DNA of 62,842 nt, counting the filler, from Rhabdomonas costata (Eukaryota), in the NCBI GenBank assembly GCA_019059605.1. It is 27 parts of 27 records of this genome, joined end to end, with 100 filler letters (N's around TTAATTAATTAA, not from the genome) between each part and the next. Parts side by side here need not be neighbours in the genome. Positions count along the whole stretch, not along the records: positions 46,639 to 48,860 come from JAHMHO010004674.1; positions 48,961 to 51,191 come from JAHMHO010004675.1; positions 51,292 to 53,521 come from JAHMHO010004676.1; 24 more parts are not named here. One strand, written 5' to 3'. The notes beneath the pieces were generated by a model. That model ran no database searches and was not told the origin of the DNA. It saw nothing but the letters and a program-made list of their open reading frames with translations. Each line of letters starts with the position of its first letter. Within the stretch, counting starts at the first letter, position 1. Position numbers and translations under genes: made by a program. Below are positions 2,335 to 51,552 of the stretch, piece by piece.

Positions 2335-4057
2335 GGGTGGGTGGGAATTGTGGTCTTCTCCAGGCTAACCGAACTCTCAATGCCACTTGCGCGGTGCTTA
2401 ATCACCACAGCTCACTGCAGCAACGTGGGTTTCATTTCTGACTTAAGCACAGTGCCGTAGGATTGAAAGAGCAGCTATGAAATGGGTTACAAAAACTAAG
2501 CGAAAAGGGTGATAGGGATGGAAGGTGGCGGGGACTGGAAGGTGATAGCGGACGAAAGGCATAATTGCAATGAGATGAGATTCGGGCAAACTGAATGCAG
2601 AGAGCCGAGGAGATGCACAGGTGTAGAGATGTAGGACGCGGTGCGGCAGTGGAAAGATGGGGGAGGAAGGGAAAGATGTCTTGTGCTCTGTTCTCGCAGG
2701 GTATGTTGTGCATGCACTTGGCTCCTTTGTGTTATTTTTATCCTTTCTCTCTCCTCAGTCTGCGTACACCGGTGTCCCTGGCATGGTCTACGGTCCTGGA
2801 GTTGGGCCTGGGTACATATACTGAGACGATTCAGTAAGAGCAGTGACCCAGACTCTCCATCGGAAGGCCCGGGTGGGTGTGGGGTGGGCCTTCTCTTGCT
2901 TCTCTGTTCGGGAGCTCCTGAGCCCATCTTTTGCTTCTCTACTCATGATCTATCTCCAGTATGGCAATGTCTTGGTGGTGCACGGAAGCATTATGCGCTC
3001 TTTGTCATTTATGTCCTCTGCGACCCCTTGGGCCGCTTGTGCGCTTTCGCGTGCACAGAGTCTTTGCGTTTTGTGAAAACCGCTGTCTCCACTCCTAATT
3101 CGTATTGCTTGACGAAGGTGCGTGGGTATATTATTGCCAGTCTGCAGATTAGCCAATCCATTTGGATTCTGTGGTAGCGTTAACGTGTGTGTGTGTGTGT
3201 GAGCGTGAAGGAGGGCGTGCTGCCCAATCCGAACCCCAGAGTACTCTTGTACACCTCCCCATATTTTATGATTCTCTCTCTGGGCGCTTTGTGTAAGTCT
3301 GAGGCTTTCGCATCTCTCCTTCGATTGCTTGCATCTGTTTCTGTAAGGTGGGAGAGCCCTTTGCTCCCTTTTCGGTGTGTTATGCAGCACATACGCACAT
3401 ATGGGTGTGGTTTTCAACCTTTGCATCCGTGTCCTATTTTCTATGTGAGAATATTGTTCTTCTTTTTGTTATGGGTTATGGGTATTCAAGAAGCGAATTG
3501 GGGACGTGATTGCATTCACTTGCATGAAAGAATTCCGCTGTTGAGCTGTCAATTCGGAGTAAGCGCTTCAGGGTTCAGGACTTGAGGACAAAGAACTATG
3601 CCCAATTTGGAGCCATATGGGGTCACCCATCCGTGTGGGTTATGTCCACTCGAAAACGATGGACCCCCAGAAAACGGTGACTCCTTCGCTTTTCTTTTGA
3701 TGATATGGAGCATAGAGTACCCACTGGATTTCAAAGTCACAGCACAATGAGAACCAACCCAACCCACAAGAAATTTGGGGGTGGAACATTCACCGCAAGG
3801 CTTAGGCTTCTTGCAGACCGATGGTTTGGCAAGCCGGAAAGATCATCCTGCAAAGCCGTGCTCGCCCGGGCGCTTGAGACTCGGTATTGCGAACGATTTT
3901 TTGTGAGACTCACTGACCCGCGGAGAAGTAGCCAGCGTAACCACCGTTCCAGAGATGTGGCTTGAGATCCAGGGTATTTGGTATTGGCTGAGAGCCTTTC
4001 CTTCCTTCCCTCTTGTTTGACCTTCCCTCCAGCAAGCACTACACCTGCTTAACAACA

Positions 4058-9336: not shown

Positions 9337-11460
9337 GGTGTGTTGTTTATGTAACAATCCGGGTGTCGAACCCGTTGAATCAAGGGAGATCGAGGAGATA
9401 GCCTGCGAGCCGCGACCTAAAGACACTGTGCCACCAACGCAGGAGAAGAAGCACCTTTTTTGCAAGGCAACCCCAGCAGGTGCAGCTTTAAATCCACAAC
9501 CACCAGCTGTCCTACCTGTAGCACCACTGGTGAGAAATGCGGTGCCACCTGGTGGGTTTCTGCCGCCACCAGGTGGCACCGCCAGGGTCTTCTTGCCAGG
9601 AGCTTTGGTAGTTGATGTTGACTGCGACATAGTATACCAGGCGGTGTACGGTCTCGAAGCCTTCGTCAACCGCAGTCACATGCTCGCCAAGGTCGAAAAT
9701 TCTCGCTCTTCGTTGGCCGCCCACATGACGCGGATGGTCGTTGCAGCGAGGTATCTCTACCACGTTGTTCTTGGTGTGCCCGTTGAGCAACTCCAGCGGA
9801 TGCCAACTGTATTCAATTTGAACCGACCCCAAGTCGACTTGTTTCCAGACGCTCGAATGTATAGCTTGTATCCTGAGGCCATGCTTAGAGCGGGGCAAGG
9901 ACTTGGAATCCGTCAAGGGTCGCAGTTGTGCCGGGTTGTTTTACCTGCTGGTTGCTTGCATAAACCTGACTATCAGATCGGCCGTCGACCAGTTCAGGTC
10001 ATTACCCCTGATGGGCTCATGGAGGTCAAGTACAACAAAGAACTACACCGTCAGAATAAGGAGGCGGGAACGGTTTTCACTCATGAACGGTCCTACTTTT
10101 AGGTTGGCGCAGGATGGTACCACAGACTTCCTTTTCAATCGACAGAGCATCTTGCCTGGGCGTTACATAGTCACCGCAAGCCAAATTAGAACTTGTGTTG
10201 ATGGACAGGTGTTGACGCGGTCATACCGGTGCGAAGCCGTGCGTCAGCGTCTGAGGTATAGCATTTCAATGGTCCATGCCGATCGTTCCTTGGCGCCATC
10301 CAGCCCTGGTGGGGCTCAGAATTTCAGTACCACCATTGCGATATGGTTAAGGTGCTCAGCTTTCCAGACACGTACTCTGCTGAGTTGCGGGAGTCAGCAC
10401 AAACAAAAACAGGAAGAAGAAAGGCAAGGAAAACCAGTGTGGATACGTACGTGCTGAGTCAACACATCTTGATTTCACTGAAGTTGGCATGCCTTGTCCA
10501 GTGCCCGTGCCCCCACAGGTATTGGCTAAGCTGATGCCTACCGCAATGGGGTTGAAATATGAGGATGGGCCTCCTGAGCTGAGTGTGATGTGCAACACAA
10601 TCAGCCAAAAAGCCGCTTCTGAATTGGAAAAACTCGATTTCCCACCCCAATGGGTTGGACAAGCAAGTGTGGCTGTGTATGGGTTGGCTGCCTTTGAGTC
10701 AGTGAGGAGCAAGGTTGCGGTTGGATCTTCTTTGGAACAGGCCTTCCGCAGCATGCGGGAGCAGTACGAACCTTCTGATCCTCGGAAGAAGAAATAAAAT
10801 GGCAAACTCACCCCTGGTGTCATTCCCCCCGGTTTTGAAACAGATGTTCATAATGTGTGTTCGTTCTTGTCCCGGGGGTCTTCGTGTAATTTGGTCGGCC
10901 GGAATCTTGACTTGCCCATTTTCCAGTGTTTGGGCGCCGAAGTTGAAGATATCGAAGAGCAAATTTCGGTAGACGACGCCGACATCCAGGAGGTTAGTTG
11001 CAGGTATTGTGGTGGTCGTGGACCAGGATTGGTGTCGCGGGAGGGTTGCTTCATTTGCCTCCGCAAACAGCGTATCATTGCGGGGTTAAAACCAGGAGCT
11101 TCAATCAATACATCGCCCAGACAAAGATGCCGAGAGCAGTACCACGGCCTCAATGTTTATGGTGTGATTATACCAGGCCTTGCATACCTTCGGGCCGCCT
11201 CCATGCGCATCAATGAAGTTAAGGCTTTAGCGGCAAGGCAACTCGCGCCAACGCCCAAGTTTGAACCTGGATTGCATGGGCTGCTCATGTCTTGGCTAAA
11301 GGAGAATTATGAAGCTTTGTTTCCTACATTCACGTCTACTGATTTCTCTTTTGGAACCGACGCGGATCAGCAGTTTGAGATCTGGAATGCACACTTTCCA
11401 AGAGCCACCGCGCACCGCTAATGCCCGCGCGTGGCCAATGGTGAAGCGTGACTTCCTCAC
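9337..11460 (+). pseudogene. Disrupted replicase of a noda/tombus-like positive-strand RNA virus (candidate endogenous viral element)
   Basis: Intronless ORF chain 9338-10102, ~10100-10457, 10384-10797, 10798-11421, ~11414-11465 linked by frameshifts and stops. C-terminal segment LKPGASI...C...GLNVYGVIIP...NEVKALAARQLAPTP...WLKENYEALFP...FEIWNAHFP resembles the RdRp-proximal region of this virus group. The upstream H-x6-G-x5-E-x2-Y-x5-DG pattern resembles their capping domain. No GDD core is present. Confidence 0.7.
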
Positions 11461-26053: not shown

Positions 26054-26674
26054 ATGTCAATACCCGCAATTTCATTGGCACTGTGCTACATGACTCTGTG
26101 TTCCGCGGCGTACGTCTACCTCCACGAAGCGAAGGCGCGCTGCTTTTTCCACGAGTTGAATGCCGACGACACGGTAGTGGTGCACTACAAGGTGTTGTCC
26201 CCAGAACCGGGCCTTGGCGTCGGGTTGGTCGTTTCCGACCCAGAGGGCTTTGTTGTGGAGCGCGCCACGCTGTCCAAAGCCGAGGACAGCCTGGAAGTCT
26301 CGGGGCTGAATATTCCCGGTGAGCATTCCATCTGCTTAAGCACGATGAGCAGGACTGTGGGTGCAAAAGGATCGCCTCTGAAACTCTTTGTGGGAATCCT
26401 CCGCGGCTTGGAGTTGGGCCAGGGCGGAGCAGTGCCCTTGACGAGGATGGAGGCCGTGCACCAGCGAGTGTCGCACTTGAGGGAAGAGTTTGCGGGGGTG
26501 CTTAAGGAGATGCGCCAGACCCGTGACCGGCTGGATCAGCTCCGCGCCACCACCAGCACAACGCAGGTGCGGGTGTGGGTGCTCGGTGCGGTGCAGGTGC
26601 TGATTGTGGTGCTGAGTGGAGCTCACGCAGTGCGCTCTTTGAAGACATTTCTGGTGGCCAAGAAGGTGGTTTGA
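26054..26674 (+). CDS. p24/emp24/gp25L (TMED) family cargo receptor, complete and intronless
   Basis: 206 aa: signal peptide, GOLD domain with two Cys (RCFFHEL...GEHSICL), coiled coil, TM helix and tail LKTFLVAKKVV. Confidence 0.93.
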   Translation: MSIPAISLALCYMTLCSAAYVYLHEAKARCFFHELNADDTVVVHYKVLSPEPGLGVGLVVSDPEGFVVERATLSKAEDSLEVSGLNIPGEHSICLSTMSRTVGAKGSPLKLFVGILRGLELGQGGAVPLTRMEAVHQRVSHLREEFAGVLKEMRQTRDRLDQLRATTSTTQVRVWVLGAVQVLIVVLSGAHAVRSLKTFLVAKKVV

Positions 26675-48307: not shown

Positions 48308-49307
48308 CTGAGAGAGCGGACGCGTATTTATCGAACACAGCAGGAGGTGGGAAGGGATGGTGGCTGGGAAGAGAAAACCCCACAGGGGTTCAGGTTCTGC
48401 TTTTGAAAAAGAATAGGAATCTAACACATCCGTGAGCCTGGCGGCACTCGGAAGAAAAGACGATGATGATGGTATGGGAAAGGGGAACTCAACGAAAGAG
48501 AGAAATAGCCACCAAGAGCATCCTGAAAGACTCCGAAAACCGAAAGTCATATCTAAACACAGCACCTCCGCGGTGCAATAGCGTTGGGCAGGGTGGTATT
48601 CATAATTTCCGGAGTTAACTAATCCCCAAACCCCCAGCAACCAGGATCTTGCGCCGGACAGGAATGGAAGCTCCGCATTGATGAGGGAGGCGCTGTAATA
48701 CTTCATCTCGATACAGCAACGTTCGGGTGCTCATCCGCATTGCTGGTGAGAGCACCACGTAAACCTTTCAGTCCTGAACTGCTCTCATGTGCGTCAGGCT
48801 GTCTCCAAAACACTGCTGCGAGGAAAACAAACATCAGTTGGGGGTGGTTAGTGACCTGGGNNNNNNNNNNNNNNNNNNNNNNNNNNNNNNNNNNNNNNNN
48901 NNNNTTAATTAATTAANNNNNNNNNNNNNNNNNNNNNNNNNNNNNNNNNNNNNNNNNNNNCATTTGTTATATTTTTTAGGGTTTGTAACTGTAACAATGT
49001 TATCAAATTGTATCTGTAATTTGCTAATTTATTATGAATATATATTTCTTTTTATTATATATATTATTACTATTATTTTTATTGAAAATTTATATTTCTA
49101 ATTTATTGTAAATATTTTTATATAAACTGTCTTTTCTTTTTTATAAAATTAATTTCACAAACAAGAAAAAAGCAGTAGCCAATGGCACTAGCAAAACACA
49201 CAAAAGTCAGTAGCTCAGCATGACGCACACGAGCAGTGGCTGGCCCAGCACGAAGAGGAAGAGGAAGAAGAGGAAGAAGAAGGAGAGCCGCCTCACAGAC
49301 GAATACG

Positions 49308-49697
49308 TCACAGGCCATCCAACTGGACGACTGTGCGCTTTACGACTGCGCAGGTATCCGCTTTGAATCTGATCGGAATTCTCTGTGTTTCGAATTCCGG
49401 CCTCGCGAGCCACTCTTCGCGGGTATCGAATGTCTGGTCAACGGCCCAGTTTTTGCCTTCTCTGATGACCTCACCAAATAAGTCCTGCCCGACCAAACGG
49501 TCGGCCACAAAGATCCCCACCTGCCAAAACGGAAAATGTTGATGTAACAACGGATAATCGCACGTCATTTTGACTGCCTTCAGGCAGTCCTTTGGCAAGG
49601 TCTTAATCATCGTTGTGATGATTTTGCGGAGCTCGCTGAGTTGGCTTGGGGCTGGGGGCTGACCAACCGGGAAAACAACAGTGATGATGCTCGACAT
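49308..49697 (-). CDS. Intronless 129-aa hypothetical protein on the virus-like contig
   Basis: Complete ATG-to-TGA ORF in a good start context (gccaaccATG). No family recognised. Confidence 0.6.
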   Translation of the reverse strand: MSSIITVVFPVGQPPAPSQLSELRKIITTMIKTLPKDCLKAVKMTCDYPLLHQHFPFWQVGIFVADRLVGQDLFGEVIREGKNWAVDQTFDTREEWLARPEFETQRIPIRFKADTCAVVKRTVVQLDGL

Positions 49698-49737
49698 GGT
49701 GTTGGCGATAGGTAGGCTGTTGAAAAGTAGTTGCTGG

Positions 49738-50148
49738 CTATGTGGGCTTCGTGAGCTTGCCTCATTCGCTCACAACAACCCTCAGAAAAAGCTTAGGGCT
49801 TCGTGGCTCGGGCTTGGGCTCGGGCTCGGGCTTGGGCTCATAAAAGTTGCACTCGCTTGCAACAATCCTCAGAGGAAGCTTTGAGGGCTTCGTGTACTTG
49901 GGTTTTGTGGGCTTCGTGGGCTCGGGCTTGGGCTCATTAAAGCCGCATTCGCTTGCAACAATCCTCATAGGAAGCATAGGGGGCTTCGTGCGCTTGGGCT
50001 TCGTGCACTTGGGCTTCGTGATCTTCGGCTGAAAAATCGTCAGTTCGTTGATTCGCTCACACGTGCACGTGGCGTTCCCGCATTGCAAGCATTTCACATA
50101 TATAATAATCTGAAAGATGTGCTGAATAAACTCCTTCGAGATTTCCAT
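49738..50148 (-). pseudogene. Intronless K/P-rich repeat protein with a CxxCxxxxCxC motif and a premature TGA
   Basis: MEISKEF...KCLQCGNATCTC, then 3 repeats of (TKP)n-LPxRIVASEC. The third repeat has TGA (49762-49764) at the Cys position and the frame continues GKLTKPT to TAG 49738. Confidence 0.55.
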
Positions 50149-50270
50149 TGTCACGCTATCAACAACTGATACGTAACAGCAGTAAATAGACAAAAAGTAA
50201 CGTGCGCACTTTATGTCACTAGGACATGTAATTCAATATATTATTATGGAATATCTAATAAATCGTTTAT

Positions 50271-50278
50271 TCAATTTT
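50271..50278 (-). promoter_or_regulatory. AAAATTGA Mimiviridae-type early promoter octamer
   Basis: On the coding strand 122 nt upstream of ATG 50148, within AATATAAAAATTGAATAA, which is identical to the copy at 51081. Confidence 0.55.
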
Positions 50279-50297
50279 TATATTCTATATTGTTTGT

Positions 50298-50331
50298 TTT
50301 ACTTTCTTACATATATATGTAAGAAAGTAAA
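50298..50331. terminator. Perfect 34-bp AT-rich palindrome, candidate hairpin polyadenylation signal
   Basis: tttactttcttacatatatatgtaagaaagtaaa equals its own reverse complement. It sits just 3' of the upstream minus-strand gene. Confidence 0.55.
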
Positions 50332-50343
50332 CAATATTGACAT

Positions 50344-50988
50344 CTAAAATAATCTTTTTACATCTAGTCTAGAAAACATACGTGAAGCAACAATAGATCC
50401 TTCTGTTTGTGTAGTATCCCTACCAACAAGATCATCCTAAAGAAACTTTCTTTCAAGAGGAGTCACTTTCGTATAATTGCGACGTTCTTGCAATGATTTA
50501 CTCTCTTCTGCTTGGTCCATTTCAACCATTTGCACTAACTGCAAATGTCTGAACACCATGATCATGACACTCATGTCTTTTTTTCTTGTTCATCCTGTTC
50601 AGATCCTTTCACTATTTGCAAAAATTTGAGCATTATATTCATAATGCCTTCGACAATCATGTCCTTTTTTCCTGCTTCGGCAACCCAAATATGTGCATTA
50701 TTTTCAAATAATCGCACATCATGGACATGAGGCCTTCTCCAATCGTGGGTTTTTTGGTTTTCCACTTAGAATCATTGGGCATCATTGACAACTCATCACA
50801 TGCTGTTGTCAACTGACCCAATTGCACAAATATTTGCACTGGTTGCAAATTTTTGAGCATCATAATTCCTTCAACAATCATGTCTTTTTTACATGCCACT
50901 CCTCAGTACCATAAGCCATTGCTAATTCATCACTTGCTATCTTCAACTTTTTTATCAGTTGCTGTTGCCTTTGTTGTGAAGTTTCCAT
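50344..50988 (-). pseudogene. Frameshifted intronless helical-repeat ORFan
   Basis: METSQQRQQQLIKKLKIASDELAMAYGTEEWHVKK/DMIVEGIMMLKNLQ...LTTACDELSMMPNDSKWKTKKPTIGEGLM.../KKDMIVEGIMNIMLKFLQ: three related units across shifted frames, with a DNA direct repeat at ~50623-50670 and ~50848-50892. Confidence 0.55.
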
Positions 50989-51080
50989 GACAAAAACAAC
51001 TGATGAACAAAAATTTGAAAAATTTCATCCGAAGATGGTAATTTTTTAAATTATAATGGACTATTCAATAAAATTATTAT

Positions 51081-51088
51081 TCAATTTT
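51081..51088 (-). promoter_or_regulatory. AAAATTGA Mimiviridae-type early promoter octamer (third copy at 51170-51177)
   Basis: On the coding strand 92 nt upstream of ATG 50988. Confidence 0.55.
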
Positions 51089-51552
51089 TATATTATTTCC
51101 TTATTTTAGATGTATCTATATCCGTTTCTATATATTGTTGCGCTTTATCAAAAGATTCAATGGCTATATTCAATTTTTCTTTTATGTCATCNNNNNNNNN
51201 NNNNNNNNNNNNNNNNNNNNNNNNNNNNNNNNNNNTTAATTAATTAANNNNNNNNNNNNNNNNNNNNNNNNNNNNNNNNNNNNNNNNNNNNGGTGTTGTG
51301 TCGTATACGAGCGCCATAAAAATAATAAATAAAATTAAAAATTATAAATTATATACTATTATTTTTATAAAAATTAAATGATAGTAAAATTTAACAATGT
51401 AATAATGTTCTCCCAATTGATCCGCTAAGTCTTAAAACGCCCCCCCCCTGAAAAAATCAGTTGTCCCCGCATTTCTAGTCGGGTTGGTATTGCGTTTCTT
51501 AATCCAAGGAGAACACGCTCTCTCTCCCTTCAGTCCTTTTGCAAAAAAGAAC

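Follow-up and report, generated by a model that had tools for sequence, protein, structure and literature searches.

Putative Imitervirales-like transcription signals around anonymous open reading frames on a short AT-rich contig of the Rhabdomonas costata assembly

A single contig of the Rhabdomonas costata genome assembly (GCA_019059605.1), at positions 48961-51191 of the DNA analysed here, carries co-oriented open reading frames (ORFs) set between very AT-rich spacers, with a repeated octamer (AAAATTGA) upstream of two of them and hairpins downstream. On balance, and with modest confidence, we take this contig to be a piece either of an Imitervirales virus or of a dependent element (a virophage, a Polinton-like virus (PLV) or a transpoviron-like element). 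The motifs, with their strand and their placement with respect to the ORFs, and the hairpins are features of the sequence itself, and they are real and beyond chance at the level of the contig. From them we infer a use as transcription signals and the kind of polymerase that would read them.

The window (the whole stretch of DNA analysed, 62,842 bases) is made up of 27 contigs of 2222-2244 bp, split at 26 linkers that are spaced about 2.33 kb apart. Each linker has the structure N45-TTAATTAATTAA-N44, and the word TTAATTAATTAA with flanking N runs is found 26 times in the window. The interval 48961-51191 coincides exactly with one contig of 2231 bp. Because the contigs are separated by such linkers, the sequence on either side of this interval is not physically linked to it, and any reading built on neighbourhood across a linker is invalid. 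The "host introns" with which an earlier note on this DNA had compared the spacers belong to other contigs of the same assembly.

Composition, motifs and hairpins of the contig

The GC content of the contig is 0.39, and that of the other 26 contigs lies between 0.465 and 0.56. Stretches of 100 nt with a GC content of 22% or less are present in only two of the 27 contigs, with three in this contig (48961-49190, 50211-50380 and 50981-51170) and one in the next (51292-51441), which bears out the earlier description of unusually AT-rich spacers. Composition within the contig is mosaic (GC column of Table 1). All of its ORFs, the three principal ones being designated g1, g2 and g3, lie on the minus strand, and the spacers have a GC content of 0.14-0.24 (0.24 for 50228-50436 and 0.19 for 50989-51093). 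Sharp steps in GC content occur at 49150/49151 and near 50227. Trinucleotide likelihood relative to the host gave z scores of -12 for the spacer and -0.6 for g3; as a test of host or non-host origin for the ORFs it was set aside, since g3 and the g1-g2 segment both fall inside the host range and the spacer alone is distinct.

The octamer AAAATTGA occurs on the minus strand at 51177, 51088 and 50278, so that the earlier count of three copies on the coding strand stands. The full word common to the three copies is the 12-mer AAAAATTGAATA, and the form of the motif with a fifth A, AAAAATTGA, is one that we take to be the CroV variant. Three copies per contig were reached in 12 of 2000 dinucleotide shuffles for the octamer and in 0 of 2000 for both the 9-mer and the 12-mer. 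Over the whole window there are 5 octamers versus 3.7 expected, a number reached by 33 of 100 shuffles, and there is thus no window-wide enrichment; the two octamers outside the contig sit in ordinary GC-normal sequence.

The copies upstream of g3 and g2 are embedded in a longer duplication, in which 51038-51094 and 50228-50284 are 79% identical across 57 nt (direct repeat D6). Because this block, with its 12-mer, precedes both ORFs, g2 and g3 share one promoter module. Both intergenic blocks also contain a second box, TA(G/T)TCCAT, at the same offset from the octamer. The third copy of AAAAATTGAATA lies 89 nt upstream of the second (direct repeat D8), in an alignment that extends past the 12-mer, and is not upstream of any complete ORF; it is located in the contig-end ORF or in a duplicated block. 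For g3 the distance from octamer to start codon is 60 nt to the ATG at 51028 and 100 nt to the ATG at 50988, and for g2 it is 130 nt to the ATG at 50148. Both ORFs thus have an octamer on their coding strand, within an AT-rich spacer and at most 150 nt upstream of a start. A two-codon upstream ORF begins at 50227, upstream of g2.

The perfect palindrome that the earlier note had placed after one gene is likewise present, as 34 nt at 50298-50331 on the 3' side of g3. The hairpin that it forms has a predicted folding energy of -19.3 kcal/mol (z -6.48), which 0 of 200 shuffles equalled. About 100 nt separate it from the g3 stop, and on its other side the g2 promoter block follows immediately. At 49132-49169, where the GC-normal sequence after g1 becomes AT-rich, there is a weaker hairpin; the 150-nt stretch that contains it has a z score of -2.0, and 7 of 200 shuffles fold as well. 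The predicted folds put a strong hairpin downstream of g3 and a weak one downstream of g1, and the 105-nt spacer before g3 folded into no hairpin (z +0.36). Read along the minus strand, the contig is laid out as a unit A, running from AAAAATTGAATA (51089) through g3 to the hairpin at 50337-50288, and a unit B, running from AAAAATTGAATA (50279) through g2 and g1 to the weaker hairpin at 49169-49132.

The motif with its immediate surroundings is frequent in giant-virus contigs from metagenomes. The exact 16-mer around the motif, TATAAAAATTGAATAA, occurs in at least 120 stretches of IMG/VR, and giant-virus metagenome-assembled genome (GVMAG) contigs account for 24 of the 80 that were listed. The 120 loci with the 16-mer contain 440 octamers in 1.05 Mb, with a median density of 0.415 per kb and mostly a GC content of 0.18-0.36; the density in our contig is 1.34 per kb. 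Two further candidate signals were rejected. An expression for the mimivirus late promoter (PMC11464507) has all 8 of its window matches (at most one mismatch) in the contig, on both strands, and these were disregarded because they were attributed to AT-richness. The second box was considered as a marker of a viral lineage; no matching lineage was found among the IMG/VR stretches listed, so it may simply belong to the duplicated block, and a place within the local duplication is its best reading.

If the contig is of viral or virus-dependent origin, its genes would be wired for the transcription machinery of a mimivirus-like giant virus. During infection, transcription would be initiated downstream of the box by the early transcription factor and RNA polymerase of the virus, and the transcript would be cut and polyadenylated at the hairpin. 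The products would presumably be small lineage-specific proteins: one of helical repeats from g3, one of K/P/E/T repeats from g2 and a 129-residue ORFan from g1.

Table 1. Features of the contig at 48961-51191, in order of position in the window (aa, amino acids; GC1/2/3, GC content by codon position)
Feature	Position	Strand	GC	Description
AT-rich 3' flank	48961..49131	.	about 0.14	Reaches contig end
Weaker imperfect hairpin	49132..49169	-		I2; 7+9 bp, 87% complementary; about 140 nt 3' of g1 stop
g1	49308..49697	-	0.52	129-aa ORFan; GC1/2/3 0.53/0.39/0.64 (coding-like)
g2	49762..50148	-	0.51	128 aa; GC3 0.67
Promoter-like block upstream of g2	50228..50284	-		AAAAATTGAATA at 50279-50268 and box TATTCCAT, offset as upstream of g3
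Terminator-like hairpin	50288..50337	-		Perfect 34-nt palindrome (I3) and outer 8-bp stem (I7)
g3	50437..50988	-	0.37	AT-richer ORFan; pieces of 36, 80, 64 and 45 aa
g3 pieces	50988-50878, 50899-50657, 50765-50571, 50574-50437	-		Read in that order
Upstream ORF	50930..51028	-		32 aa (MKFFKFLFISCFC..., MKFFKF...); hydrophobic, signal-peptide-like start; between box and g3 ATG
Promoter-like block upstream of g3	51038..51094	-		AAAAATTGAATA at 51089-51078 and box TAGTCCAT, 26-33 nt from octamer start
Contig-end open frame	51093..51191	-	0.255	32 codons and TAA, read from first base of contig end

Open reading frames and database searches

The three co-oriented, intronless genes of the earlier note are recovered as the minus-strand ORFs g1, g2 and g3; the word "gene" is narrowed here, since it is defined by open reading frames alone. 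The window contains 50 stop-to-stop ORFs of at least 150 amino acids, many of them in plainly non-coding frames and two of them on this contig, so ORF length by itself is weak evidence.

The ORF g3 is composed of four related units at spacings of 135, 86 and 86 nt (DNA repeats D2 and D3) and is read as four pieces. Every later piece is in the -1 frame relative to the one before it, which makes three changes in the same direction, and each junction consists of an A6 or A7 run followed by ACATGA, in which the stop overlaps the next ATG. Five A-runs of at least six occur within g3 and the frame changes at three of them; the sole repeat unit that keeps frame is also the one that lacks ACATGA. At the protein level the repeat spans the pieces (for example, the tail of the first piece resembles the tail of the first unit in the second), from which it follows that the ancestral frame extended through all of them. 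These changes fit systematic homopolymer-length miscalls in sequencing or amplification, or real slippage mutations, and programmed slippage is a less likely cause. At two of the three junctions the in-frame sequence is ...A AAA AAG ACA TGA, and A AAA AAG is a classical slippery heptamer; as a smaller, second possibility, the junctions could be sites of programmed slippage or stop-start coupling and not damage. Translation with the alternative code table 4 (TGA=W) lengthened some frames and left the g3 pieces unjoined.

The ORF g2 has an N-terminus with Cys followed by K/P/E/T-rich repeats of 32 amino acids (96 nt; D5). The tandem-repeat periods within it (6, 9, 12, 15, 18 and 96) are all multiples of three, and coding sequence is therefore favoured over a satellite. 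Its two best repeat copies differ in 3 synonymous and 7 non-synonymous codon changes. Its terminal TGA occupies a position that is TGC in the repeat units, and a further stop follows 8 codons on. The decay proposed in the earlier note would consist of this stop and the three g3 frame changes; all of the latter fall in A6/A7 runs and may be assembly errors.

The ORF g1 starts 64 nt after the g2 stop, and the intervening sequence is GC-normal and has neither an AT-rich spacer nor an octamer. Its frame is open upstream as far as 49769. GC content at third codon positions (GC3) is 0.64-0.67 for g1 and g2, 0.75-0.82 for three clear host exons and 0.32-0.47 for the g3 pieces. An AlphaFold2 model of g1, made without an alignment, has a mean predicted confidence (pLDDT) of 38.6. 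Opposite the region 3' of g1 there is a plus-strand ORF of 48 amino acids (49220-49366) with a KRKRKKRKKK run, which is encoded by a GAAGAG-type repeat at 49252-49287; this ORF may be due to chance, or may be a small convergent gene with a nuclear-localisation-like signal.

Two shorter frames complete the contig. The 32-residue ORF between the box and g3 shares its frame with the second g3 piece, and three TGA codons separate the two. The frame at the contig end includes the third copy of AAAAATTGAATA (51178-51167) and is either the last part of another AT-rich gene, the fourth in this orientation, or a promoter block repeated in tandem.

Pfam searches with six ORF pieces identified no family and gave two sub-threshold matches only (E 0.13 and 0.093), of which the former, to PARP, is the sole match of g2. 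Consistent with the earlier statement that no hallmark viral gene is present, these pieces revealed neither a major capsid protein (MCP) nor PolB, the A32 ATPase, VLTF3 or an RNA polymerase subunit on the contig. The same searches of the contig detected neither the virophage/PLV morphogenesis module (double jelly-roll MCP, penton, FtsK-type ATPase and cysteine protease) nor, on its 2.2 kb, the replication and integration genes of these elements (pPolB and integrase). Missing PLV genes are weak evidence, because 2.2 kb represents at most about 15% of a 14-40-kb PLV. A word-based search of 5.8e9 proteins found no relative for g1 or for the second g3 piece. Scans of IMG/VR peptides with g1, g2 and the second g3 piece returned nothing, nor did scans of JGI metagenomes with g1 and the second g3 piece. 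For g1, the best match among PDB sequences had an E value of 0.85, and the ESM Atlas gave no usable hit. With phmmer, g1 had three hits among 1.84e9 representatives; all are long tandem-repeat surface proteins, and they were judged spurious; in each case one match of 25-30 residues had been summed 6-10 times. Rfam and tRNA scans gave nothing above threshold, and no tRNA or rRNA was found.

Ten long ORFs from other contigs were searched as well, and cellular domains only were found, in 4 of the 10 (DSPc, proteasome Rpt1 OB, TauE and DAO). The host belongs to a very poorly sampled eukaryote lineage. A complete single-exon gene for a p24/GOLD-domain protein is present at 26072-26671; its best match is 57% identical and is the sole hit with an E value of 1e-10 or less among 5.8e9 proteins, and the ESM Atlas placed this protein no more closely than in the Eukaryota. 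Elsewhere in the window, the contig at 9337-11570 has two plus-strand open frames, at 9338-10102 (254 amino acids) and 10798-11421 (207 amino acids), with no Pfam match and a GC3 of only 0.51-0.53, well below the 0.75-0.82 of the three clear host exons; these two frames may be derived from a transposon or virus and not from an ordinary host gene.

Origin of the contig and its implications

Several observations weigh against a viral or virus-dependent origin. The three copies of the motif arose by duplication of a single block, and the shuffle statistic therefore overstates their independence. At 100-130 nt, the distances from the octamer to the long ORFs are towards the upper limit of the published 150-nt range, and g1 has no box of its own and lies beyond that range. 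With a GC content of about 0.52 and a GC3 of 0.64-0.67, g1 and g2 are unlike typical AT-rich Imitervirales coding sequence, and the trinucleotide profile of g1-g2 falls within the host range (z -1.0). The differences between the two best g2 repeat copies are distributed 6/4/4 over the codon positions, and purifying selection is therefore not evident. The databases searched yielded no homologue for any of the ORFs, and no viral hallmark was recognised. At 413 pooled IMG/VR octamer sites there was no enrichment of TCC or GTCC at a fixed offset, and a scan of IMG/VR for octamer-N17-TAKTCCAT matched 93 stretches, with a single match in each of the 80 listed. Finally, 51292-51441, the sole other AT-rich stretch of the window, has no octamer (0/1) and no strong hairpin.

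Alternatively, the contig might be part of the host's own genome, or a host-specific repeat or mobile element unrelated to giant viruses, in which a spacer block with a fortuitous AAAATTGA was duplicated locally. The contig would then consist of GC-normal ORFs or minisatellite-like repeats between AT-rich spacers, in keeping with the host-like GC content and trinucleotide usage of g1 and g2 and with the paralogy of the motif copies. ORFs of this length are common by chance, as the 50 in the window illustrate, and ORFans are expected in a lineage sampled as poorly as the p24 match indicates. The next contig moreover begins with 24 nt of GC-normal sequence and about 110 nt with a GC content below 15%, directly followed by a host-type exon, so that AT-rich DNA of a similar kind does adjoin host sequence. 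A 38-nt match connects its AT-rich start to 49054-49090 (87% identity, E 1e-4 in a 58-kb database), in low-complexity sequence. The stretch at 51292-51441 could be the edge of a similar element beside host DNA, which is a lead and not a link. (The minus-strand reading of the 24 GC-normal nucleotides opens with an ATG.) Against a host origin, DNA of this kind is confined to 2 of the 27 contigs; the octamer, the 12-mer, the strand bias, the position upstream of ORFs and the palindrome 3' of an ORF all fit one published grammar; an octamer in a given 60-nt AT-rich block has a probability of only about 1-2% by our own base-frequency estimate; and the multiple-of-three periods of g2 are those of coding sequence. 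We therefore regard a host origin as unlikely.

A contaminant, such as another cellular organism or an organelle with AT-rich intergenic DNA, would explain why the composition differs from that of 25 of the 26 other contigs and why the contig is short and linked to nothing. It appears quite improbable, because no ORF matched any cellular protein in the searches run (such a match being what the earlier note had named as telling against a viral origin), because the RNA scans were equally empty, because a coding GC content of 0.52 is unlike that of AT-rich organelles or nucleomorphs, and because reading TGA as tryptophan does not join g3. Slimmer still is the chance of an assembly or amplification chimera, in which AT-rich viral-like pieces were misjoined to a GC-normal host piece at 49151-50227. 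The sharp GC steps at the two ends of this piece, the very fragmented assembly and the homopolymer-linked frame changes in g3 are compatible with such an origin, but the joins fall at the start and the end of a transcription unit, which random chimeras would not do twice, and the shared promoter block precedes both the GC-normal g2 and the AT-richer g3, the g2 block being a copy of the g3 block. The GC-normal segment also ends at a hairpin, as unit A does.

The reading that we favour remains that of a piece of an Imitervirales virus or a dependent element. The earlier note's case for the octamer is qualified in that only two of the three copies precede ORFs, that the copies are paralogous duplicates and that there is no enrichment across the window. 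The assignment to an Imitervirales-like, virophage or PLV fragment in the earlier note is likewise upheld by the regulatory grammar and qualified by the missing homologues and hallmarks and by the composition of g1 and g2. Its description of the fragment as endogenous is not borne out, as the contig is AT-rich at either end and shows no junction with host DNA.

The moderately unusual point is the position of ORFs of host-like composition behind viral signals. It is conceivable, if improbable, that g2 and g1 are genes of host-like composition that have come to lie between a giant-virus early promoter and a viral-type hairpin terminator. Within a host genome such a cassette would stay silent until the polymerase of an Imitervirales virus arrived, and would be a host or provirophage-like unit that infection switches on, either in defence or as a decoy; within a virus it would represent a very recent capture of host genes. 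Should the favoured reading hold, it would associate a giant virus (or a virophage or PLV) with a eukaryote lineage of which very little has been sampled, and the GC-normal ORFs under viral signals would be an instance of recent host-virus gene flow. In protists, DNA of giant viruses, virophages and PLVs, whether endogenous or co-assembled, is already well documented, and the contig by itself is too short and too anonymous to alter existing knowledge. The 12-mer together with the hairpins offers a simple handle for retrieving related contigs from the full assembly.

Comparison with known viral and virus-dependent systems

A close counterpart of this layout is provided by the early transcription units of the Imitervirales. 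According to PMC5294985, 45% of mimivirus genes have AAAATTGA at most 150 nt upstream of the start codon, and the motif is tied to early expression. Polyadenylation in the Mimiviridae is described in PMC4402537 as occurring at hairpin-forming palindromes whose sequence is not conserved. The early promoter goes back to Suhre 2005 and the "hairpin rule" to Byrne 2009, as cited in PMC5294985 and PMC4402537. Like these units, the contig has the octamer in an AT-rich spacer, on the coding strand and within 150 nt of ORF starts, an ORF that is followed by a palindromic hairpin, and genes that are co-oriented, densely packed and intronless. Unlike them, g1 has no promoter of its own and the octamer stands 100-130 nt from the ATG. 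The contig further differs from Imitervirales genomes in having no hallmark or conserved viral gene and in the GC content of two of its ORFs, which is about 0.52 and not about 0.25-0.30.

Virus-dependent elements show related arrangements. The PLV PgVV-14T (Gezel-14T) is described as using this same early motif, with AT-rich intergenic stretches and all of its ORFs in one orientation (bioRxiv 10.1101/2022.07.28.501842). Our contig resembles it in its co-oriented ORFs, its AT-rich spacers and the mimiviral early motif. It differs from PLVs and virophages in that MCP, penton, packaging ATPase, protease, pPolB and integrase are absent from it and in that no terminal repeat or target-site duplication is visible. 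Endogenous virophages and PLVs of protists have many ORFan genes and are often present in many integrated copies, and such many-copy integration would account for a contig that is short and broken.

According to PMC7031253, virophage and transpoviron genes are flanked by elements like those of the host virus, namely terminator hairpins and the late promoter. Transpovirons, as described there, are short episomes of mostly ORFan genes with regulatory elements that resemble those of the host virus, terminator hairpins among them, and in these respects the contig is similar. The elements of that account use a late promoter and carry terminal inverted repeats of 380-520 nt, whereas neither inverted terminal repeats nor conserved transpoviron genes are seen on the contig.

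A precedent for mixed composition is found among the octamer-bearing GVMAG contigs. One of these (L043) has a GC content of 0.27 and includes an ORF of 218 amino acids with a GC content of 0.70, and another (L112) includes ORFs with a GC content of 0.57. Both thus resemble our contig in having higher-GC ORFs within AT-rich, octamer-bearing sequence, and differ from it in being unverified contigs of metagenome-assembled genomes. The L043 ORF lies on the minus strand at 2518-3174, is rich in Cys and His and has a GC3 of 0.89; this striking GC island either was transferred recently or is a chimera that arose in binning or assembly. With regard to its signals, the contig at 48961-51191 matches the published regulatory grammar of the Imitervirales, and by this comparison the fit is good.

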